From NCBI GenBank assembly GCA_964465575.1, contig CAYXIF010000001.1:15140-79139 (forward strand): a stretch of DNA of 64,000 nucleotides, in the 5' to 3' direction. The position numbers and the translations under genes were made by a program. Under the pieces are notes generated by a model. The model ran no database searches, was not told the DNA's origin, and worked only from the letters and a program-made list of their open reading frames with translations. Positions 6,730-62,658 of this stretch are shown here, in pieces. Positions within the stretch are counted from its first letter, which is position 1; every line of letters starts with the position of its first letter. The DNA is from an uncultured Candidatus Bathyarchaeia archaeon. GTDB lineage: Archaea > Thermoproteota > Bathyarchaeia > Bathyarchaeales > DTEX01.

Positions 6730-9015
6730 CTATAAGCTTTGGCCCACTCGGACAGATCGCAGTATAAGTGTTCTTCTTGATTCACTTGTGAGCAGACCGT
6801 TCAGGTAGTATTTGATGGTTGCATCTTGCTTAACCGTGCCAACATCACTTGACACCCAGTAGTATGCTGTTGTGACTATTCGCATGCTCTGTCCATCAAG
6901 CATTATCCCTTCCACTTCTGTGGTCTTCACCCTTGCACAGAAGTATGTTGCACCATTCTGGGCGCTTACGCTCTCCAGATCCTCCACTTCTTCCTTGCCC
7001 ACGATGCTTCCGCTGTAAGCATTTCCCTGCATGAACACCGTGAAGTTGCTTGCATATTCCCAACTCTTCCCTCTAGCCAGGGGGTATGGAGGACCTGGCA
7101 AGGGGCTATCGTATGTGCATTCCGTTCCATCTGATACCCATTTTCGCAGTGAGCCGCCTTCTGTGAGGTAGTAGTAAGTTGTCTCCTGGGGCCTCTCAAT
7201 CCTGATTTCCGTTTCGCTTACCTTAAGCCATCTTACTGAGCTTTCTTTACCATCAGCCCACTCAGTGAAGATCTTCTCTGTCCCGTCAGGAAGAATAGGC
7301 ATGCCAATCTGTTCAGCGGAATCCTTCCCTGTTCCTACTACCCGTGTCTCAGTTTCAGCAATCAACGACACTAGGTTGAGTATCAGCTGGTAATTGTCTT
7401 CCGAGAAACAGTATGGCTCACTGAGGAAGGTCAGGTCACCAAAGGCAGCTACAGCACCATTTCCCCTTTTTGCCAAAGCAATCACTGCGTAGCTGTCTGC
7501 TCTTTCAGCCACAGAAGAGTACGTAGTGACAGATGTCCAAGCCAACCCTTTTTGCATCGAGTAGATGTGGGTTGCTGTACAAAGAAGCAAGGACCTCAAA
7601 CCCGTGGTTAGGGAGTTTGCCGAGAAGTTCTTCGCGTAGATGTTGCGGTATATCCCGTAGTGTTCCTCTTCGTTGTAGAGGTAACCCTTGGCGAAGGAGA
7701 AACCGAATCTTGTGGAAATTGAGTTAACTGGAGCAATAATTCCCGCGGCCAACCCTTCGTATCCAAGGTATTCCCAAGCTGGATCAAAAAACAGAAGCAG
7801 TAGCCCCCCATCATCCACAAACTTCTCGATGGTCTTGCACTCTGTCTCACTGTAGACTTCGGTTGGGGAGGCAACTATGAAGCACGATGCACTCTCAAGC
7901 TTAGACTCAAGGTCATACCACTGTGAAATAAAACTAACCGTCACGTTTCTTTTTGCCAGCTCGGCTATGAGGATGTCAATGTCCCACCACAAGATCTGGT
8001 TCCCATGCGACGTATCCACAAGTACATCGCCTTCTCGAGCGTCCTGCGTAGCTGGAGACGCGAACGGGTTAGTGCCTTGAGCCATGGCTTGAGGGGGAAG
8101 GTAGATATAGTGAACTGCCGGTGGAGGATGAATCTCATCGAGAACCCTTAAGGTTATGTTTTCCCATCTCATAGATGTTGCGTTAGACGAGCCCTGCCAA
8201 GATGTAGAGACCCCAATCTGTCGTGGGACAAGCTCAGCAACCTCGTACTGAACGAGGTTTGCCTGCTTGGCTACCTTCTCCACGGCCTTCAGGAAAGAGC
8301 CTGCTTCGTCAGCCAAGCCGACGGCCACGGCTTCGCTCCCCAGATAAATCGTTGCCCTTCTCAGCTGGGTCGAAGACAGCTTGAGGCGGTTGCCTCTGCT
8401 CTTCTCGACTGCTGATACGAAGTTGTCGAGCGCGTGGCTCAGGTTAAGGGGAAATAGGAGCTTGGAGAACCCTGTTGCCTTGTGGGCCCCGGTCTCCATT
8501 ACTGATTCCTGAGGTATAAGCACCGGTGGTCCTCTTCCTATGACTCCTATGCTTCCGACGAATGATGTGGGTGGTACGAAAATGTGATCAGCAGCAACAG
8601 CAATGTAATACCCTCCAGAAAGCGCCGTGGTGATTGAGGCGACCAAGGGTTTCTTTGCCTTAAGCTCGAGGAGGTCTAGGTATATCCTTTCAACATAATC
8701 AGCATAGCCACCTGCTGAGTCAACTACGAGCACAACGGCTTTCACACTTTCGTTGAACACGGCTTGGCTGATGAGGTCAGTGCAATAGGCAACAGTCCAA
8801 GATGTCTCGATGTAACCCTCCACCTTTATTACCCCCACTAGGTTCCTGCGTTCGGCCGAAGGGTACCTAGAAGACATCTGCAGATAGATCACGGAGGCGG
8901 CGAAGATGCAGATGAGGATTGTCGCGTAGATCTCACGCCGTCCCAGCTTTGAGAGCAGAGTTCCGAAAGCCATATCTTCTTCTCGACTTTGGTTCAAGAA
9001 ATGTTCCTCCGCCAC
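6730..9015 (-). CDS. Membrane-anchored multidomain protein: N-terminal TM helix, signal-peptide-peptidase SppA (S49) domain, DUF4350/GldG-like domain and a beta-rich C-terminal domain
   Basis: 761 aa with a TM segment IYATILICIFAASVIYL. The S49 motifs are VVLVVDSAGG, LSGGYYIAVAADHIF (nucleophile Ser) and GAHK (general-base Lys). The middle region DTSHGNQ...FIVASP...FVDDGGLLLLFFDP resembles DUF4350. The last ~200 aa are unassigned. An alternative start is MAFGTLL at 8973. Confidence 0.75.
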   Translation of the reverse strand: MAEEHFLNQSREEDMAFGTLLSKLGRREIYATILICIFAASVIYLQMSSRYPSAERRNLVGVIKVEGYIETSWTVAYCTDLISQAVFNESVKAVVLVVDSAGGYADYVERIYLDLLELKAKKPLVASITTALSGGYYIAVAADHIFVPPTSFVGSIGVIGRGPPVLIPQESVMETGAHKATGFSKLLFPLNLSHALDNFVSAVEKSRGNRLKLSSTQLRRATIYLGSEAVAVGLADEAGSFLKAVEKVAKQANLVQYEVAELVPRQIGVSTSWQGSSNATSMRWENITLRVLDEIHPPPAVHYIYLPPQAMAQGTNPFASPATQDAREGDVLVDTSHGNQILWWDIDILIAELAKRNVTVSFISQWYDLESKLESASCFIVASPTEVYSETECKTIEKFVDDGGLLLLFFDPAWEYLGYEGLAAGIIAPVNSISTRFGFSFAKGYLYNEEEHYGIYRNIYAKNFSANSLTTGLRSLLLCTATHIYSMQKGLAWTSVTTYSSVAERADSYAVIALAKRGNGAVAAFGDLTFLSEPYCFSEDNYQLILNLVSLIAETETRVVGTGKDSAEQIGMPILPDGTEKIFTEWADGKESSVRWLKVSETEIRIERPQETTYYYLTEGGSLRKWVSDGTECTYDSPLPGPPYPLARGKSWEYASNFTVFMQGNAYSGSIVGKEEVEDLESVSAQNGATYFCARVKTTEVEGIMLDGQSMRIVTTAYYWVSSDVGTVKQDATIKYYLNGLLTSESRRTLILRSVRVGQSL

Positions 9016-9457
9016 AACCTACGGTAACATACAGTTTATTTAAGAGTTGTGGGGACTTCTTGGCGGCACATTCCAAGAATGAGGCGAGAAAGCAGTACAG
9101 GGAACACGGACAGACAGCTACTCTGCTCGCAAGTCTAAGTGATAACCTCCATGTAAGAAGCGGTAATAGCTGAACGCCTCCTGTTTAGAGCTAGAGGCGC
9201 GCTACGAAAGAAAAGCCCCTATCACCATCTCAAGATGACAGAAAGCGCGACTTTCCTGCGCAAATGTCTCTTCCTCCGCCCGAAGTCAGGATTCACTAGA
9301 AACCTATCTGAAACCTTTGGCTTGTCATGAACAACACGAATGACGAGCGGCTACTTGTGGTAGAATCACTGAGTCATGCGGGTGAACCCCAGGAAAGGTG
9401 GAGAAAGGATTGAAGCATGTACCGATCACGCCGCAGAATCGAGTGGCCGAGACTCTT

Positions 9458-9486
9458 CAGAAAGAGAAAACGAATGAAACAAAGCT
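9458..9486 (-). terminator. Oligo-T tracts immediately downstream of the SAM synthetase stop codon
   Basis: The minus strand reads gagctttgtttcattcgttttctctttctg directly after the stop. Archaeal termination typically occurs at oligo-T runs. Confidence 0.4.
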
Positions 9487-10695
9487 CTAGCATATCGGTA
9501 TTTTGCCTTGGGCTAGGTCCATGCAAAACTTGTCTATGTTCTCCAGCTCGTGGTCAACAATCTCTGCTGCCGCTTTCTTCACCTTGTTGAATGCTGTTCC
9601 TCTCTTCGTGATCAGCTGCACGGCTGCGACCGTTGGATGATCTATGGGGTGACCAATCCTGCTCAGCATCCAAACGTAGACCTCTTCTGCCTCTAGCACT
9701 TGGCGATTTATCTCGTTGGCGATCCTATGGGTTAAGAGGTTATAGATTTTCCCAACATGGCTGACTGGGTTCTTCCCAGCCGCAGCCTCGGAGCACTGAG
9801 GCCTGTTAAGTGAGATCAGTCCGTTCACCCGGTTTCCTCTCCCAACTTGGCCTGAATCTGCCCCGTCTGCGCTCGTTCCCAGCACAGTCAAGTAGACTCC
9901 CCCGATGCCTCTGCCCGGGGCGTCAAGTGTGTTCAGTTGGACACTCACCTTGCTGAAGTTGTTGTTCTCCTTAACAAACCGAGTTAGATCCTCAAGGGCT
10001 TCAGCCTTCTTCTCAAAATAATGCCTCTCACTCTCGATGAAGCGATCGACATAGGCCACCGAAACCGTAAGATCTAGCTCGTCGCCTTTCCGCAGTCCCA
10101 TCACCTTTATGTCCTCCCCTGTCTCAGGGAACCTTTTCTTGAAATCCTTGGAGTTCAGGTAGTTCTCTGTTCTCAAGACAGCTTTCTCAGTGTTCGTCAA
10201 CGGTGCCCATCCCACAGCCGCAGATGTGTCATTCGCTTCGAGGATTTTCCTGCCTCTCCTAAATATGTCAGTGAGCGCCGAGGATCCTGGCAGAATCTCA
10301 ACTTGGTATATGACATGGTGCTCCGGGTTCACGAACCTCAAGTTCCTCTCAAACCATTGCTTGGCTGTTTGGACAGCAATCTCTTCAACCGGTATCTCCG
10401 TCTCGTCAACCTTGAACGTCGCTCTGTCTCCAAAAATCAGCTTCATGGGTTTCTTGACGACTCCGCCACCGAACCTTGTCTCCACGTCTCCTGCGGCTAG
10501 CAAAGACTTGTCGATGTTATGGTGCATTATGAACCCTGTCTTGTCCAAATACTCCTTGCTCAAGGCGACCGAAACCTGGTTCATTATGCAGTCGCAGATT
10601 GTGTCCGGGTGGCCGAGGCCTTTTCTTTCAACAACTTCAATCTTTTGGTCCTCCAATGGAGCCTGCTCTAGCCGCGTGACTAGTATGTTTCTCAT
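9487..10695 (-). CDS. mat: Archaeal-type S-adenosylmethionine synthetase (methionine adenosyltransferase)
   Basis: 402 aa. The N-terminus contains VERKGLGHPDTICD, and the length and overall pattern match the archaeal MAT family rather than bacterial MetK. Confidence 0.93.
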   Translation of the reverse strand: MRNILVTRLEQAPLEDQKIEVVERKGLGHPDTICDCIMNQVSVALSKEYLDKTGFIMHHNIDKSLLAAGDVETRFGGGVVKKPMKLIFGDRATFKVDETEIPVEEIAVQTAKQWFERNLRFVNPEHHVIYQVEILPGSSALTDIFRRGRKILEANDTSAAVGWAPLTNTEKAVLRTENYLNSKDFKKRFPETGEDIKVMGLRKGDELDLTVSVAYVDRFIESERHYFEKKAEALEDLTRFVKENNNFSKVSVQLNTLDAPGRGIGGVYLTVLGTSADGADSGQVGRGNRVNGLISLNRPQCSEAAAGKNPVSHVGKIYNLLTHRIANEINRQVLEAEEVYVWMLSRIGHPIDHPTVAAVQLITKRGTAFNKVKKAAAEIVDHELENIDKFCMDLAQGKIPIC

Positions 10696-10714
10696 AGGAA
10701 GTCACCGTTCATAG

Positions 10715-10810
10715 GCCGCCGAATGAGATAGGACTAGAGGCGATATATACCTTACGGTATAATCTCCATTTCCAGTATACATTATTCTACATAACCGCCC
10801 GAATGATAGG
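10715..10810. promoter_or_regulatory. Divergent mat / HTH-CBS promoter region carrying an imperfect direct repeat CCGCC(C)GAATGA(GA)TAGG
   Basis: Repeat copy 1 is at 10715-10732 (gccgccgaatgagatagg) and copy 2 at 10794-10810 (accgcccgaatgatagg). They flank a TATA-like cgatatatac at 10741-10750. An A-rich tract (aaaaaataac) lies about 25 nt upstream of 10883. Confidence 0.4.
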
Positions 10811-10882
10811 CGATCATACAGAAAAGCAGATATTCACAGAAGCAACCATTGTATGTGGAAAAAATAACTACAGGTTATCAAG

Positions 10883-11440
10883 ATGCTTGTCAGAGGTCTA
10901 ATGTTGAAGAAGATGCGGATTGATGCCGGCCTTACGCAGAGCCAACTCGCAAGGATGGTAGGCGTGTCTCAAGCCCACATCGCAAAGATCGAGGGAGAAA
11001 AGGTCGACCCTAGGTTGTCCACTGTGAACAAGATACTTCAGATTGTTGCAGGCGGAAGAGGAAAGAAATGCGGCGAAATAATGACAAGAGGCGTGATCGT
11101 AGCAGACCCTAAGGACAAGGTCAGCAAGGTAAGCGAGCTCATGATAAAGCACGCTATCTCTCAGTTGCCTGTTGTTCAGGGCGACAAAGCAATAGGAATG
11201 ATCACTGAGGAAGGAATCGTGAGAAACCTCAATCCAAACATTGCGAATGAGCTAGTTGAGAGGGTCATGGTGCCTCCACTCCCAACTGTGACAGAAGACA
11301 CAGACGTGAGTGTAATAAGGCCGCTTGTTGAAACTCATCCTGGCGTGCTCGTCACAAAAGAAGGAAAGCTTGCAGGGATAATCACCCGTTCCGATCTTCT
11401 AAAAGTCATTTCGACCATAATGTCCACCGCTGTGCCCTAG
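10883..11440 (+). CDS. Transcriptional regulator with an XRE-type HTH domain fused to a CBS-domain pair
   Basis: 185 aa. The HTH segment is LTQSQLARMVGVSQAHIAKIE. Two CBS modules follow (IMTRGVIVADP...LPVVQGDKAIGMITE and VMVPPLPTV...VLVTKEGKLAGIITRSDL). Confidence 0.8.
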   Translation: MLVRGLMLKKMRIDAGLTQSQLARMVGVSQAHIAKIEGEKVDPRLSTVNKILQIVAGGRGKKCGEIMTRGVIVADPKDKVSKVSELMIKHAISQLPVVQGDKAIGMITEEGIVRNLNPNIANELVERVMVPPLPTVTEDTDVSVIRPLVETHPGVLVTKEGKLAGIITRSDLLKVISTIMSTAVP

Positions 11441-60783: not shown

Positions 60784-61005
60784 TTGAAGGCCGAAGTCGA
60801 GAAAGTCATCAAAGAGATTCAACCTCACCTGAGAGCGGATGGCGGAGACATAGAACTCGTTGATGTAGACAATGAAGGGATCGTCAAAGTCAGGCTGAAG
60901 GGTGCCTGCTTCGGGTGCCCCATGGCACAGATGACCCTAAAAATGGGGGTCGAACGATACCTGAAACAGAAGGTTCCACAAGTGAGAAGCGTAGAAACAG
61001 TGTAG
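60784..61005 (+). CDS. NifU/Nfu C-terminal-domain-like Fe-S scaffold protein
   Basis: Only the last 73 aa of track ORF 60478..61005 are homologous: (M)KAEVEKVIKEIQPHLRADGGDIELVDVDNEGIVKVRLKGACFGCPMAQMTL. I propose the TTG start at 60784. The upstream part overlaps gltX out of frame. Confidence 0.68.
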   Translation: MKAEVEKVIKEIQPHLRADGGDIELVDVDNEGIVKVRLKGACFGCPMAQMTLKMGVERYLKQKVPQVRSVETV

Positions 61006-61348
61006 ACTTCACCTCGTTGTCACAACCCTCTTCCTTTTGTGGCTCGCAGAATCTTGGAAGCCTTGCGTTGGCATTCTTCAGACCTTTAGGGTTCTTCTCT
61101 GAATCCCCTCATCATTGGTCCTTCCTTTTTCGAGATCAGATAGGTGGTCGCCAATTGGACCAGCGTGAAGAGCACAAAACAACAAGCACGGAGAGCGGTG
61201 GGGAACTCGACTTGTGTGTTGGAATCCAGCTGAGATGCTGAGAATGCGCGGCCAGTTTCGCCGGCCTCAGAAGTGCCTCGACATATGCGTGTATAGCTCA
61301 TCAACGCTTCTGAACGCTCTGGGAGTTGCGATTCGAGTTTACCGCAAT

Positions 61349-61357
61349 CTATATAGA
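61349..61357 (+). promoter_or_regulatory. TATA box (ctatataga) upstream of rpl7ae-rps28e
   Basis: About 70 nt upstream of ATG 61427, which implies a ~45-nt leader containing the K-loop-like element. Confidence 0.4.
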
Positions 61358-61390
61358 GGGGAGTTTTTCTTAGTTAGGGGTTAATGCAAA

Positions 61391-61409
61391 CTGAGACACA
61401 TGTTGATGA
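61391..61409 (+). promoter_or_regulatory. K-turn/K-loop-like element (CUGA-N9-UGAUGA) in the rpl7ae 5-prime leader
   Basis: CTGA is at 61391-61394 and TGATGA at 61404-61409, in D-prime/C-prime order. The SD GGTGATC at 61417-61423 and ATG 61427 follow. Confidence 0.4.
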
Positions 61410-61426
61410 AGTTTCGGTGATCGGGA

Positions 61427-61810
61427 ATGTCGAAACCGTTCTACGTCAAGTTTGACGTTCCGGACGAGGTCGCTAACGCTACTTACGAGGCTTTACAGAT
61501 AGCGGCAAGGTCCGGTGCAGTTCGCAAGGGCACGAACGAGACCACTAAAGCAGTTGAAAGGGGGCAGGCGAAGCTAGTTGTCATAGCAGAGGATGTTGAC
61601 CCGCCAGAGGTTGTGGCGCACCTCCCGATCCTATGCGAGGAAAGGAAGATCGCTTATGTCTTCGTCCCGAGCAAGGTTCAGCTCGGCACATCCGTAGGGA
61701 TAGATGTCCAGTCCGCTGCAGTGTGCATAATAGAAACTGGAGACGCCACAGACCTCGTCAAGGAGATCATCACCCGGGTTCTGAGGCTTAAGGAAGGACC
61801 TAGCGGATGA
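61427..61810 (+). CDS. rpl7ae: 50S ribosomal protein L7Ae (K-turn-binding protein)
   Basis: 127 aa containing [40 protein letters not shown]. Confidence 0.94.
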
Positions 61811-62028
61811 GCCAGAAGGAACACGCCGAGGAAACCCTGACGCCTGCGCAGGTCATCCAGATAGTTGGCAGAACTGGAGCCACTGGCGAGATCAGACAGG
61901 TTAGAGTTCGGATACTCGACGGTCCAGACAAGGGACGCATAATAACCAGAAATGTTAAGGGACCTGTCCGGCTGGAAGACATCCTTATGTTGAGAGAGAC
62001 TGAAAGGGAAGCAAGAAAAATACGCTGA
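61807..62028 (+). CDS. rps28e: 30S ribosomal protein S28e
   Basis: 73 aa containing [19 protein letters not shown]...[13 protein letters not shown]. Its start overlaps the rpl7ae stop in an ATGA overlap. Confidence 0.93.
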
Positions 62029-62099: not shown

Positions 62100-62297
62100 A
62101 TGCCCAGACTTCAAATATGCTCATTCTGTGGACGCGATTTTTCCTCAGGCACAGGGATCATGTACGTCAACCTTGACGGCTCAACTAGGTGGTTCTGTTC
62201 GAGCAAATGCAGAAAGAACGCGCTGAAGCTGAGACGTGACCCACGCAAGCTCAAATGGACCGCCCACTACCGAAAGGAAGAGAAAGCAAAAGTGTGA
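62100..62297 (+). CDS. rpl24e: 50S ribosomal protein L24e
   Basis: 65 aa containing CSFCGRDFSSGTG...RWFCSSKCRKN, the zinc-ribbon L24e pattern. Confidence 0.93.
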   Translation: MPRLQICSFCGRDFSSGTGIMYVNLDGSTRWFCSSKCRKNALKLRRDPRKLKWTAHYRKEEKAKV

Positions 62298-62342
62298 GAA
62301 ACGTGCTACTCCCTTACTTTCGGATGCTTTCCTAAACAATGC

Positions 62343-62354
62343 ATTTTCTATTCT
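62343..62354 (+). terminator. Oligo-T tract (attttctattct) downstream of rpl24e
   Basis: T-rich runs lie 45-57 nt after the rpl24e stop. This is an archaeal oligo-T terminator candidate. Confidence 0.35.
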
Positions 62355-62360
62355 GTGCCT

Positions 62361-62589
62361 CTTAAGCGGGTTACGAGTTTATCGTGGGCGCTTTTGTGTT
62401 CCACGTAACTAACACTCAGCATCACAGCCGAGCGGGTTCGCTCTTCTCAGCCAAGCTCTCTCTAACGCGGATTTCTTAGCGCCCACGCCCGCCTTGTCCC
62501 GCATCTGGGTAAACCCTCCTTCATGAACGGCTTGTCAAACCGTTTTGGTCGAGTCCGTCTAGGCGGGCCCCGAGAGGGTTCAGGCGGGA
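62361..62589. ncRNA. Candidate structured non-coding RNA; identity and strand unresolved
   Basis: No ORF of 60 aa or more in any frame between two convergent genes. Long-range perfect helices: 62383-62391 cgtgggcgc with 62479-62487 gcgcccacg; 62497-62502 with 62584-62589; 62512-62518 with 62574-62580; 62487-62493 with 62562-62568. Local hairpins are at 62430-62443 and 62526-62544. Confidence 0.3.
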
Positions 62590-62658
62590 TTCCAGAAGCT
62601 CATATCATCGCTGATCTATGGAAGGGTGGGTTTTCTGATAAACCTTTCTTAATCAGGT

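Follow-up and report, generated by a model that had tools for sequence, protein, structure and literature searches.

The 64,000-nucleotide stretch of archaeal DNA analysed here (the window) comes from a member of the Bathyarchaeia. Near its end, the ribosomal protein genes rpl7ae, rps28e and rpl24e head toward pheT, which is encoded on the opposite strand, and the gap between rpl24e and pheT (62298-62658, 361 nt) holds no long open reading frame (ORF). We find that this gap carries a previously unannotated gene for a structured non-coding RNA (ncRNA) on the minus strand, present in one group within the Bathyarchaeia. An earlier reading of the same DNA from its letters alone (the original prediction) had already described the gap as lacking a long ORF and proposed an independent structured ncRNA gene in it, with a lean toward the minus strand; conservation, covariation, a predicted promoter and the lack of a conserved ORF now strongly support such a gene, and the choice of strand was borne out. 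We propose that the RNA guides pseudouridine formation as an atypical box H/ACA-type RNA with two pockets, a reading to which we assign a probability of about 0.6. The main reason for this assignment is that both of its units match the archaeal H/ACA geometry, with a ten-layer GA stem and a spacing of 14 or 15 nt to an ACA box.

Conservation, strand and putative promoter of the RNA gene

We compared the pheT loci of 13 Bathyarchaeia genomes and find that in 12 of the 13 the DNA just 3' of pheT matches the gap, with 72-83% identity over 177-288 nt (blastn/nhmmer). PheT itself is 64-69% identical at the amino-acid level in those relatives. The nucleotide identity of the RNA exceeds that of the flanking coding sequence, which argues against a mere untranslated region (UTR) or a small ORF. 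A search of metagenomes with a fixed 20-base motif gave 106 stretches, about 50 of which are chance matches without a homologue, and a profile search (nhmmer) gave 71 matches with 49 unique cores. On one metagenome contig (Ga0315310_10003375, L089) the RNA core is identical to that of the window and the proteins encoded beside it are 98-100% identical. The structure and the feature counts reported below refer to an alignment of 48 distinct sequences. At homologous loci the ncRNA usually lies between pheT and the convergent L24e-S28e-L7Ae operon, and in most of them it adjoins the L7Ae operon. It is kept even where pheT is 0.8-6 kb off, where L24e lies up to 3 kb away, or where one of these neighbours is missing from the locus.

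On the minus strand, the conserved block runs from 62612 down to about 62376. The extent originally proposed, 62340-62625, covers this block and is revised to 62376-62612, with the putative promoter reaching to 62650. The element had also been called GC-rich, which holds weakly (0.55-0.58, versus about 0.50 in the flanks). Upstream of the block lies an element resembling a transcription factor B recognition element (BRE) and TATA box, which starts about 10 nt past the pheT stop codon and places the TATA box at -31 to -26 relative to G62611. Nearly all unique homologues carry (A/G)GAAA(C/T/G)GTTTA(T/A) or GTAAAGTTTATTT upstream at the same offset, with GCGAUGA as the anchor. By its consensus and spacing, this element is a likely archaeal promoter of the ncRNA; a scan for promoters and terminators of bacterial type is uninformative for archaeal DNA. 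At the other end, a run of at least four T is found within 40 nt 3' of the block in 27 of the 49 homologues, in 13 of those within about 5 nt. In the window itself the first such run 3' of the block occurs only at about 62335, so the 3' end is uncertain there.

Three lines of evidence favour the minus strand. G.U pairs are invariant at several helix positions and, read from the opposite strand, would turn into A.C mismatches; the RNAalifold energy is -69.4 kcal/mol on the minus strand versus -55.5 kcal/mol on the plus strand; and the promoter-like element has the same orientation. The gene is non-coding. No conserved reading frame was found in the homologue alignment, where every frame has a median of at least two stops, and 416 of the 449 gap runs are not multiples of three. 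Plus-strand ORFs across the element do yield similar peptides in some relatives. Across the whole window no Rfam family reaches its gathering threshold, and a scan of the gap at E<=10 gave only chance matches (SAM_alpha, NEAT1_2, SNORA62 and MIAT). A dedicated scan found no tRNA or tmRNA.

Secondary structure and the two H/ACA-like units

Folded as a single sequence, the gap is unremarkable (minimum free energy z-scores of -1.08 and -2.13 for the plus and minus strands, respectively), and the evidence for structure therefore rests on comparison with relatives. We derived the structure with RNAalifold from 12 and from 48 sequences and completed it by hand. From 5' to 3' it comprises a kink-loop (K-loop) hairpin; an outer helix A around a small variable hairpin (A') and unit 1; an outer helix D around unit 2; and a short tail with G-ANA. 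Across the 48 sequences its 59 pairs are 93.8% paired, compared with 36-45% when the partners are slid by 1-3 columns. Double-sided (compensatory) changes occur in 19 pairs (104 cells), and the observed values were not attained in any of 500 shuffles. The original prediction had named a lack of compensatory changes in relatives as an outcome that would count against it, and these 19 pairs are the reverse of that outcome.

Some of the pairings proposed in the original prediction recur in this structure. Its 9-bp inverted repeat is present as a repeat of 9-10 bp (62383-62392/62478-62487), is conserved with compensatory changes and corresponds to helix D. Two hairpins, both conserved and covarying, also recur: GAGCG-N4-CGCUC (62430-62443) as the apical stem of unit 2, and ACGG/CCGU (62526-62544) as the C-stem of the kink-turn (K-turn) of unit 1. 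Other proposals did not survive the comparison. The nested tcccgc/gcggga and the competing gcccgcc/ggcgggc pairings are in the wrong register, and the aaccctc/gagggtt helix is not conserved in relatives. Absent from that earlier account are the features suggestive of an L7Ae/H/ACA-type RNA, namely its two ACA boxes and its three K-turn/K-loop motifs.

The strands of helices A and B (62488-62494, 62498-62502, 62563-62567 and 62582-62588) are near-identical repeats of CCCGCC and GCGGG/GGCGGG, so that a crossing, pseudoknot-like register is possible in principle. A conformational switch between the nested and crossing registers is likewise possible in principle; covariation backs the nested register only, with B5'-B3' inside A5'-A3'. 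A pseudoknot like that of RNase P (A5'-B3' / B5'-A3') was rejected on the same covariation. In helix A, 97% of cells are paired, several pair types occur at columns 38/141, and columns 35/144 show a compensatory change from G-C to A-U (GC 43, AU 4, GU 1). In helix D, 93% of cells are paired and columns 155/254, 156/253 and 157/252 are compensatory. Hairpin A' varies in sequence and length, retains a CCC/GGG, CUC/GAG or UCC/GGA stem, and is paired in 76% of cells, where the alignment is poor. One homologue (L034:3115-3362) has a long insertion in A'.

The GA...GA and GC/GC flanks of the 5' K-loop hairpin are invariant or nearly so in 46 of the 48 sequences, and the hairpin is a predicted L7Ae-binding site. 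In the other two, L033 and L052, it is missing or degenerate, which indicates that it is dispensable in some lineages. These two homologues (L033:4460-4685 and L052:2344-2569) have AU-rich sequence in place of the K-loop, a reduced hairpin A' and a differently placed TATA-like AAAGGTTCATAT. At the opposite end of the RNA, CCACGA.A is invariant (48/48); the terminal ANA that it leads into could serve as a third box of the Cbf5 type or help to set the 3' end. We rejected helix D plus this terminal ANA as an H/ACA lower stem, given that 16-19 nt of variable length would separate it from any pocket.

Both units share one plan, in which a short stem (5 or 6 bp) is followed by a two-strand internal loop, a stem capped by a K-turn, an apical hairpin and an invariant ACA directly 3' of the short stem (Table 1). 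Both strands of both internal loops are invariant and neighbouring loops vary; such invariance is expected of antisense elements against conserved ribosomal RNA (rRNA). The few guide positions that do vary are the NN of the 5' strands, column 237 (U/C/G) and the last position of ACCCAG(A/C). In unit 2, both GA-stem strands are 10 nt long and are followed by 14 nt and then ACA in all 48 sequences, with no adjustment needed. In unit 1, the 15 nt from the closing pair of the GA stem to ACA, and ACA itself, are likewise found in 48/48. If two invariant basal G.U pairs are excluded, every sequence has 10 nt on the 5' side of the unit 1 GA stem, and 45/48 have 10 nt on its 3' side as well. No indels occur between GA stem and ACA in either unit, while adjacent loops differ in length. 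Covariation supports unit 1 at columns 78/120 (UA 21, CG 16, UG 11) and unit 2 at 181/228, 182/227 and 183/226, with stem E covarying at 167/241 (GC 22, AU 15).

The K-turn boxes of unit 1 are CNGA with RUGANG (5' CNGA, 3' NRU-GANG), and the window has A rather than G at position 2n. Unit 2 has a C/D-like K-turn of CUGA on the 5' strand with GUGAUGC on the 3' strand (UGU-GAUGC). In both units the core G and A of the K-turn are invariant or at least 90% conserved. The loop strands of unit 1 are mirror-like (CUAGAC / CAGAU), and tandem A.G/G.A pairs between them are conceivable. In unit 2, GUGUU in the region 62409-62415 (the end of its GA stem and the start of the 3' guide) is complementary to AACAC at 62396-62400, which holds ACA box 2; both are invariant, so this pairing shows no covariation. 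In one homologue (L003:5392-5639), 5 nt are inserted in the K-turn region of unit 2 and the D-like box there is rearranged (GCCCAGCCUAUAGCCGAAGAGCGGCUUAGCC).

Table 1. Coordinates of the RNA gene, its parts and the neighbouring genes in the window.
Feature	Position	Strand	Remarks
ncRNA gene	62376-62612	-	5' AGCGAUGAUAUGAGC ... GCGCCCACGAUAAAC 3'; about 235-237 nt; conserved block; exact 3' end uncertain
BRE/TATA-like putative promoter	62637-62650	-	AAGAAAGG-TTTATC; shared motif at fixed offset in homologues
5' K-loop hairpin	62597-62612	-	AGC-GA-UGAUAU-GA-GCU; 3-bp stem, tandem G.A/A.G, 6-nt loop
Outer helix A, 5' strand	62582-62588	-	CCCGCCU; pairs with 62488-62494; encloses unit 1 and its ACA
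Small variable hairpin A'	62569-62578	-	CCC-UCUC-GGG; three-way junction between helices A and B
Unit 1	62495-62567	-	H/ACA-like
Unit 1 lower stem B	62563-62567 with 62498-62502	-	5 bp
Unit 1 5' pocket strand	62555-62562	-	CUAGACGG
Unit 1 GA stem	62545-62554 with 62513-62522	-	10 layers including embedded tandem G.A
Unit 1 C-stem hairpin	62526-62544	-	
Unit 1 K-turn bulge	62523-62525	-	CAU
Unit 1 3' pocket strand	62503-62512	-	UUACCCAGAU
Unit 1 ACA box	62495-62497	-	
Outer helix A, 3' strand	62488-62494	-	AGGCGGG; partner of 62582-62588
Outer helix D, 5' strand	62478-62487	-	CGUGGGCGCU; pairs with 62383-62392; encloses unit 2 and its ACA
Unit 2	62396-62470	-	H/ACA-like
Unit 2 lower stem E	62465-62470 with 62401-62406	-	6 bp
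Unit 2 5' pocket strand	62457-62464	-	UAGAGAGA
Unit 2 GA stem	62447-62456 with 62414-62423	-	GCUUGGCUGA / GAUGCUGAGU; 10 layers
Unit 2 apical C-stem hairpin	62427-62446	-	
Unit 2 K-turn bulge	62424-62426	-	UGU
Unit 2 3' pocket strand	62407-62413	-	GUUAGUU
Unit 2 ACA box	62397-62399	-	
Outer helix D, 3' strand	62383-62392	-	AGCGCCCACG; partner of 62478-62487
3'-terminal ANA	62380-62382	-	AUA in the window; ACA, AGA or AAA in relatives; 1 nt past helix D
rpl7ae	61427-61810	+	heads toward pheT
rps28e	61807-62028	+	heads toward pheT
rpl24e	62100-62297	+	heads toward pheT
pheT	stop codon 62659-62661	-	continues past the window end

Candidate targets and identity of the RNA

By published description, archaeal H/ACA guides carry a K-turn or K-loop in the upper stem and an ANA box that lies 14-15 nt from the target position (PMC2377435). 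Counted from the pair that closes the pocket up to the K-turn G.A pairs, the GA stem has exactly 10 layers in every crystal structure and every productive fold, and extra sheared G.A pairs are tolerated within it, as in Pa19 and Pa105.1 (PMC4652768). Euryarchaeal multi-motif H/ACA small RNAs (sRNAs) such as Pyrococcus Pab35, Pab40 and Pab105 (Pf3, Pf6 and Pf7), Archaeoglobus fulgidus Afu-4 and Haloferax volcanii sR-h45 have several hairpin units in about 130-250 nt, and the gap RNA, at about 235 nt with 2-3 K-turn hairpins, falls within the range of such RNAs. Like them, it has in each unit a lower stem, a two-strand pocket, a 10-layer GA stem with K-turn or K-loop, and ANA 14-15 nt from the closing pair (PMC2377435, PMC4652768). 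It differs from them in the extra outer helix (A or D) around each unit, in an extra 5' K-loop hairpin that has no pocket, and in lacking sequence or covariance-model likeness to the H/ACA families in Rfam. The lower stems, B with 5 bp and E with 6 bp, are shorter than the euryarchaeal descriptor demands (H1 of 7 bp or more) and lie within the range of Pyrobaculum, where sR201 and sR202 have lower stems of only 5-6 bp (PMC4652768). These two RNAs and sR115 and sR435 of Sulfolobus islandicus, which likewise belong to the Thermoproteota/TACK archaea, share the 5-6-bp lower stems and the 10-layer GA stem with the gap RNA; they are single-hairpin RNAs, whereas the gap RNA has two pocket units and a K-loop hairpin. 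Crenarchaeal and atypical H/ACA RNAs are relaxed in structure and tolerate short and imperfect pairing of guide with target, over 8-11 bp and even over 6 bp (PMC11077068). Atypical H/ACA-like RNAs without lower stem and ACA have also been described, and in contrast to them the gap RNA retains its ACA boxes. The Cbf5-Nop10-Gar1 proteins of P. furiosus accept atypical guides.

Based on this geometry, we propose the following model. The RNA would be transcribed as a stand-alone molecule of about 235 nt, starting from a BRE/TATA promoter of its own and running the same way as pheT. L7Ae would bind the K-turn of each unit and probably also the 5' K-loop, and Cbf5-Nop10-Gar1 would dock on the short lower stem and ACA box of each unit. 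The two invariant strands of each internal loop would base-pair with target RNA to both sides of a uridine, and this uridine would be converted to pseudouridine by Cbf5. The outer helices A and D would clamp the units, ACA boxes included, into a compact two-domain RNA.

The consensus target predicted from unit 1 is 5'-CUGGGUAA-U-N-CCGUCU-3', and that from unit 2 is 5'-ACUAAC-U-N-UCUCUC-3'. We scanned the rRNAs of E. coli, a haloarchaeal operon from a megaplasmid, and four 23S-bearing contigs (L131, L133, L134 and L135) that were found via spurious ORFs called inside 23S genes. The 16S rRNAs scanned were those of E. coli, the haloarchaeon and a Thaumarchaeota-like archaeon (assigned by primer matches), with no Bathyarchaeia 16S among them. 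No rRNA was found in the window or in the pheT and homologue loci, and IMG/VR gave no archaeal 16S, only eukaryotic large-subunit (LSU) fragments. L131 (JBFONC010002176.1) carries a full-length archaeal LSU at 8066-11103 (Rfam) and comes from the Bathyarchaeia, its neighbouring PurP being about 80% identical to many 'Candidatus Bathyarchaeota' proteins. The other three contigs were taken to be from related (TACK) archaea.

The top canonical unit 2 site in the 23S rRNA of L131 lies on the 3' strand of helix 69 (CUGAC-U-C-UCUC, position 2048, 5+4 bp) and is likewise present in the other three contigs. Within the helix 69 sequence GGGAGUAACUCUGACUCUCUCAAGG, the U after GAC is the predicted pseudouridylation site. 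We take this position to be E. coli 1921, equivalent to psi2264 of yeast, where it is pseudouridylated. Pseudouridines in helix 69 occur in bacteria, archaea and eukaryotes. Helix 69 is also the target of sR-h45, and unit 2 of the gap RNA may share it. It is the best available candidate target of unit 2, attractive on biological grounds and statistically weak. Two further 23S sites were rejected: in the peptidyl-transferase centre, GCUGGGUUUAGACCGUCG (E. coli 2579-2594) pairs with ACCCAG and GACGG and leaves 4-5 nt unpaired, and in helix 71, GGGUAAGUUCCGAC has a G following the 3'-guide duplex. The Thaumarchaeota-like, haloarchaeal and E. coli 16S rRNAs gave nothing above shuffled guides, and no conserved target site was found in local Bathyarchaeia DNA (533 kb, including pheT and gltX), whose few tRNAs were uninformative.

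Several results weigh against a guide RNA of this type. No convincing target was found for either pocket in the rRNAs scanned. The helix 69 match comprises only 5+4 bp (shuffle P of about 0.12) and leaves some invariant guide nucleotides unpaired; the best match of unit 1 lies in a variable 23S hairpin of L131 (P of about 0.04, uncorrected for three fold variants); and with canonical pockets neither the E. coli nor the haloarchaeal rRNAs outscore shuffled guides. In structure, the lower stems are shorter than the 7-9 bp of euryarchaeal motifs, and unit 1 has 10 layers only if its two basal G.U pairs are read as guide, and 12 otherwise. Both ACA boxes are single-stranded but, instead of occupying a 3' tail or a hinge between hairpins, lie inside a junction or loop closed by outer helix A or D, with only the third ANA in the free 3' tail, and we found no published description of ACA boxes enclosed by an outer helix. 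The Crenarchaeota studied (Sulfolobus islandicus and Pyrobaculum) have single-hairpin H/ACA RNAs only (PMC11077068). Finally, no Rfam H/ACA family (for example RF00058, RF00060, RF00064 or RF00065) matches at E<=10, the lone H/ACA-type match being SNORA62 with E=9.4. Given that guide families are lineage-specific, this argues against those families only, and it lends no positive support either.

The same features allow one main alternative reading. It is possible, if rather unlikely in our judgement, that this is an L7Ae-binding structured RNA on an H/ACA-like scaffold that does not guide pseudouridylation and acts as a chaperone of pre-rRNA folding or processing (compare snR30/U17 and U3) or as the scaffold of an unknown ribonucleoprotein (RNP), its invariant internal loops binding proteins or pre-rRNA rather than positioning a uridine. 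Such a role would fit an RNA that has three K-turn/K-loop motifs and invariant loop strands yet no strong canonical target in the rRNAs scanned, whose ACA boxes are enclosed in a manner atypical for modification guides, whose mirror-like unit 1 strands could form a structured protein-binding loop with tandem A.G/G.A pairs, and whose gene adjoins the L7Ae operon in most loci. The model for it, snR30/U17 of eukaryotes, is an H/ACA scaffold for 18S processing whose loop strands pair with pre-rRNA without positioning a uridine; it is eukaryote-specific and has no K-turn. However, 10-layer GA stems and a fixed ACA spacing of 14/15 nt are most simply the geometry of Cbf5-Nop10-L7Ae, the missing target is weak evidence given that the cognate 16S rRNA is not among the scanned sequences, and we know of no archaeal processing RNA of this kind. 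More speculative, and doubtful, is that the RNA forms the core of a new L7Ae-dependent archaeal RNP with a co-opted H/ACA scaffold, either a pre-rRNA factor like snR30 or U3 or a regulator tied to the L7Ae-S28e-L24e operon, with loops that recognise pre-rRNA or proteins. We consider a box C/D-type guide for 2'-O-methylation, or a precursor of C/D sRNAs, improbable. All three K-turn motifs are C/D-like (GCGAUGA; CNGA with RUGANG; CUGA with GUGAUGC), but the sequences flanking the D-like and C-like boxes are paired with one another, with covariation, in helix F and in the GA stem of unit 1, and so are not free guides of 10-12 nt. Moreover, the boxes are spaced by tens of nucleotides with intervening hairpins, unlike the C-12nt-D'...C'-12nt-D arrangement, and their polarity around the apical stem (D 5', C 3') is that of H/ACA K-turns and C'/D' K-loops. 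We therefore rejected the C/D guide; the C/D-like boxes occur only as halves of K-turns.

The original prediction had pointed, with reservations, to a likeness to the P4 helix of RNase P, and a divergent or minimal RNase P RNA, or an RNA of the signal recognition particle (SRP), is now very improbable. Archaeal RNase P RNAs (types A, M and T) are also 200-300 nt long with a GC-rich core helix, they carry K-turns bound by L7Ae, and type T of Pyrobaculum was missed by standard models before its discovery. Their consensus has a P4 pseudoknot and the conserved regions CR-I (GNAANNUCNGNG) and CR-V (ACNNRANNNNGNNUA), whose P4 strands are loosely resembled here by AAUCCCGCC and ACAN-GGCGGG. Against this, the models RNaseP_arch, RNaseP-T and Archaea_SRP give no match at E<=10. 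The gap RNA lacks the P4 pseudoknot and CR-I/CR-V, its CCCGCC/GGCGGG helices being nested (covariation at 35/144), and the proposed P4 3' strand, AACCCGCUUAAG at 62372-62361, falls beyond the conserved block, which ends near 62376. The sequence also lacks GAGGAAAGUCC and an SRP helix-8 motif, as had been flagged at the outset, together with GGCUUA and, for archaeal SRP helix 8, any motif of the GGAAGGGAGCA type. Equally hard to sustain is that the element is no independent gene at all and represents a read-through 3' UTR or terminator of pheT or rpl24e, or a small ORF. It does lie directly 3' of pheT in most loci, and the similar plus-strand peptides of some relatives hint at coding. The promoter-like element conserved at a fixed upstream distance, the retention of the RNA where pheT or L24e is distant, and an identity above that of flanking coding sequence argue against a UTR, and the coding reading was rejected on the stops found in most homologues in every frame and on indels that are mostly not multiples of three. 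Both the RNase P/SRP and the UTR/ORF explanations are thus largely refuted.

Bathyarchaeia are abundant and uncultured, their non-coding RNAs are almost uncharted, and no Rfam family covers the gap RNA. If it is an H/ACA guide, it would be a multi-motif one in the Thermoproteota/TACK archaea, as against the single-hairpin RNAs of Sulfolobus islandicus and Pyrobaculum. It would also represent a new arrangement, with ACA boxes buried in clamp helices and an extra K-loop hairpin, and would probe how far the Cbf5-Nop10-Gar1-L7Ae complex can accept departures in structure. It yields concrete target predictions, helix 69 included. If the RNA is not a guide, it would belong to a new kind of archaeal L7Ae RNP. 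In either case the 48-sequence alignment could seed a covariance model for annotating the RNA in metagenome-assembled genomes.

Further observations on rRNA contigs and the rpl7ae leader

The search for rRNAs turned up several features of the contigs themselves. In L131 (8066-11460) the 23S gene stands alone: the nearest 8 kb hold no 16S, and just past the 5' end of the 23S gene a tRNA is encoded on the other strand. All four 23S contigs have UAACUCUGAC as their helix 69 sequence, with C at E. coli position 1916 and CUCUCUC as the 3' strand. At least 98 clusters of spurious 'proteins' (P0001-P0098; L131:8001-8537) are antisense to archaeal 23S around the peptidyl-transferase centre, and these entries in public collections are annotation artefacts. 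Two contigs from the viral collection IMG/VR (L124 and L125) carry fragments of eukaryotic LSU rRNA (Rfam LSU_rRNA_eukarya, 127 and 682 bits).

Upstream of rpl7ae on the plus strand, about 330 nt (61005-61338) between a NifU-like ORF that ends at 61005 and the rpl7ae leader have no convincing ORF, and blastn found no conservation of this segment in the compared loci. The leader that follows (61338-61426), about 90 nt 5' of the rpl7ae start codon, is 75-88% identical in many relatives. It has a TATA-like TTTACC...TATATA and then CUGAGAC...UGAUGAAG...GGUGAUCGGG, which contains C/D-like boxes. In other archaea, L7Ae has been reported to regulate its own mRNA via a K-turn, and these boxes may form a candidate K-turn for such control here.

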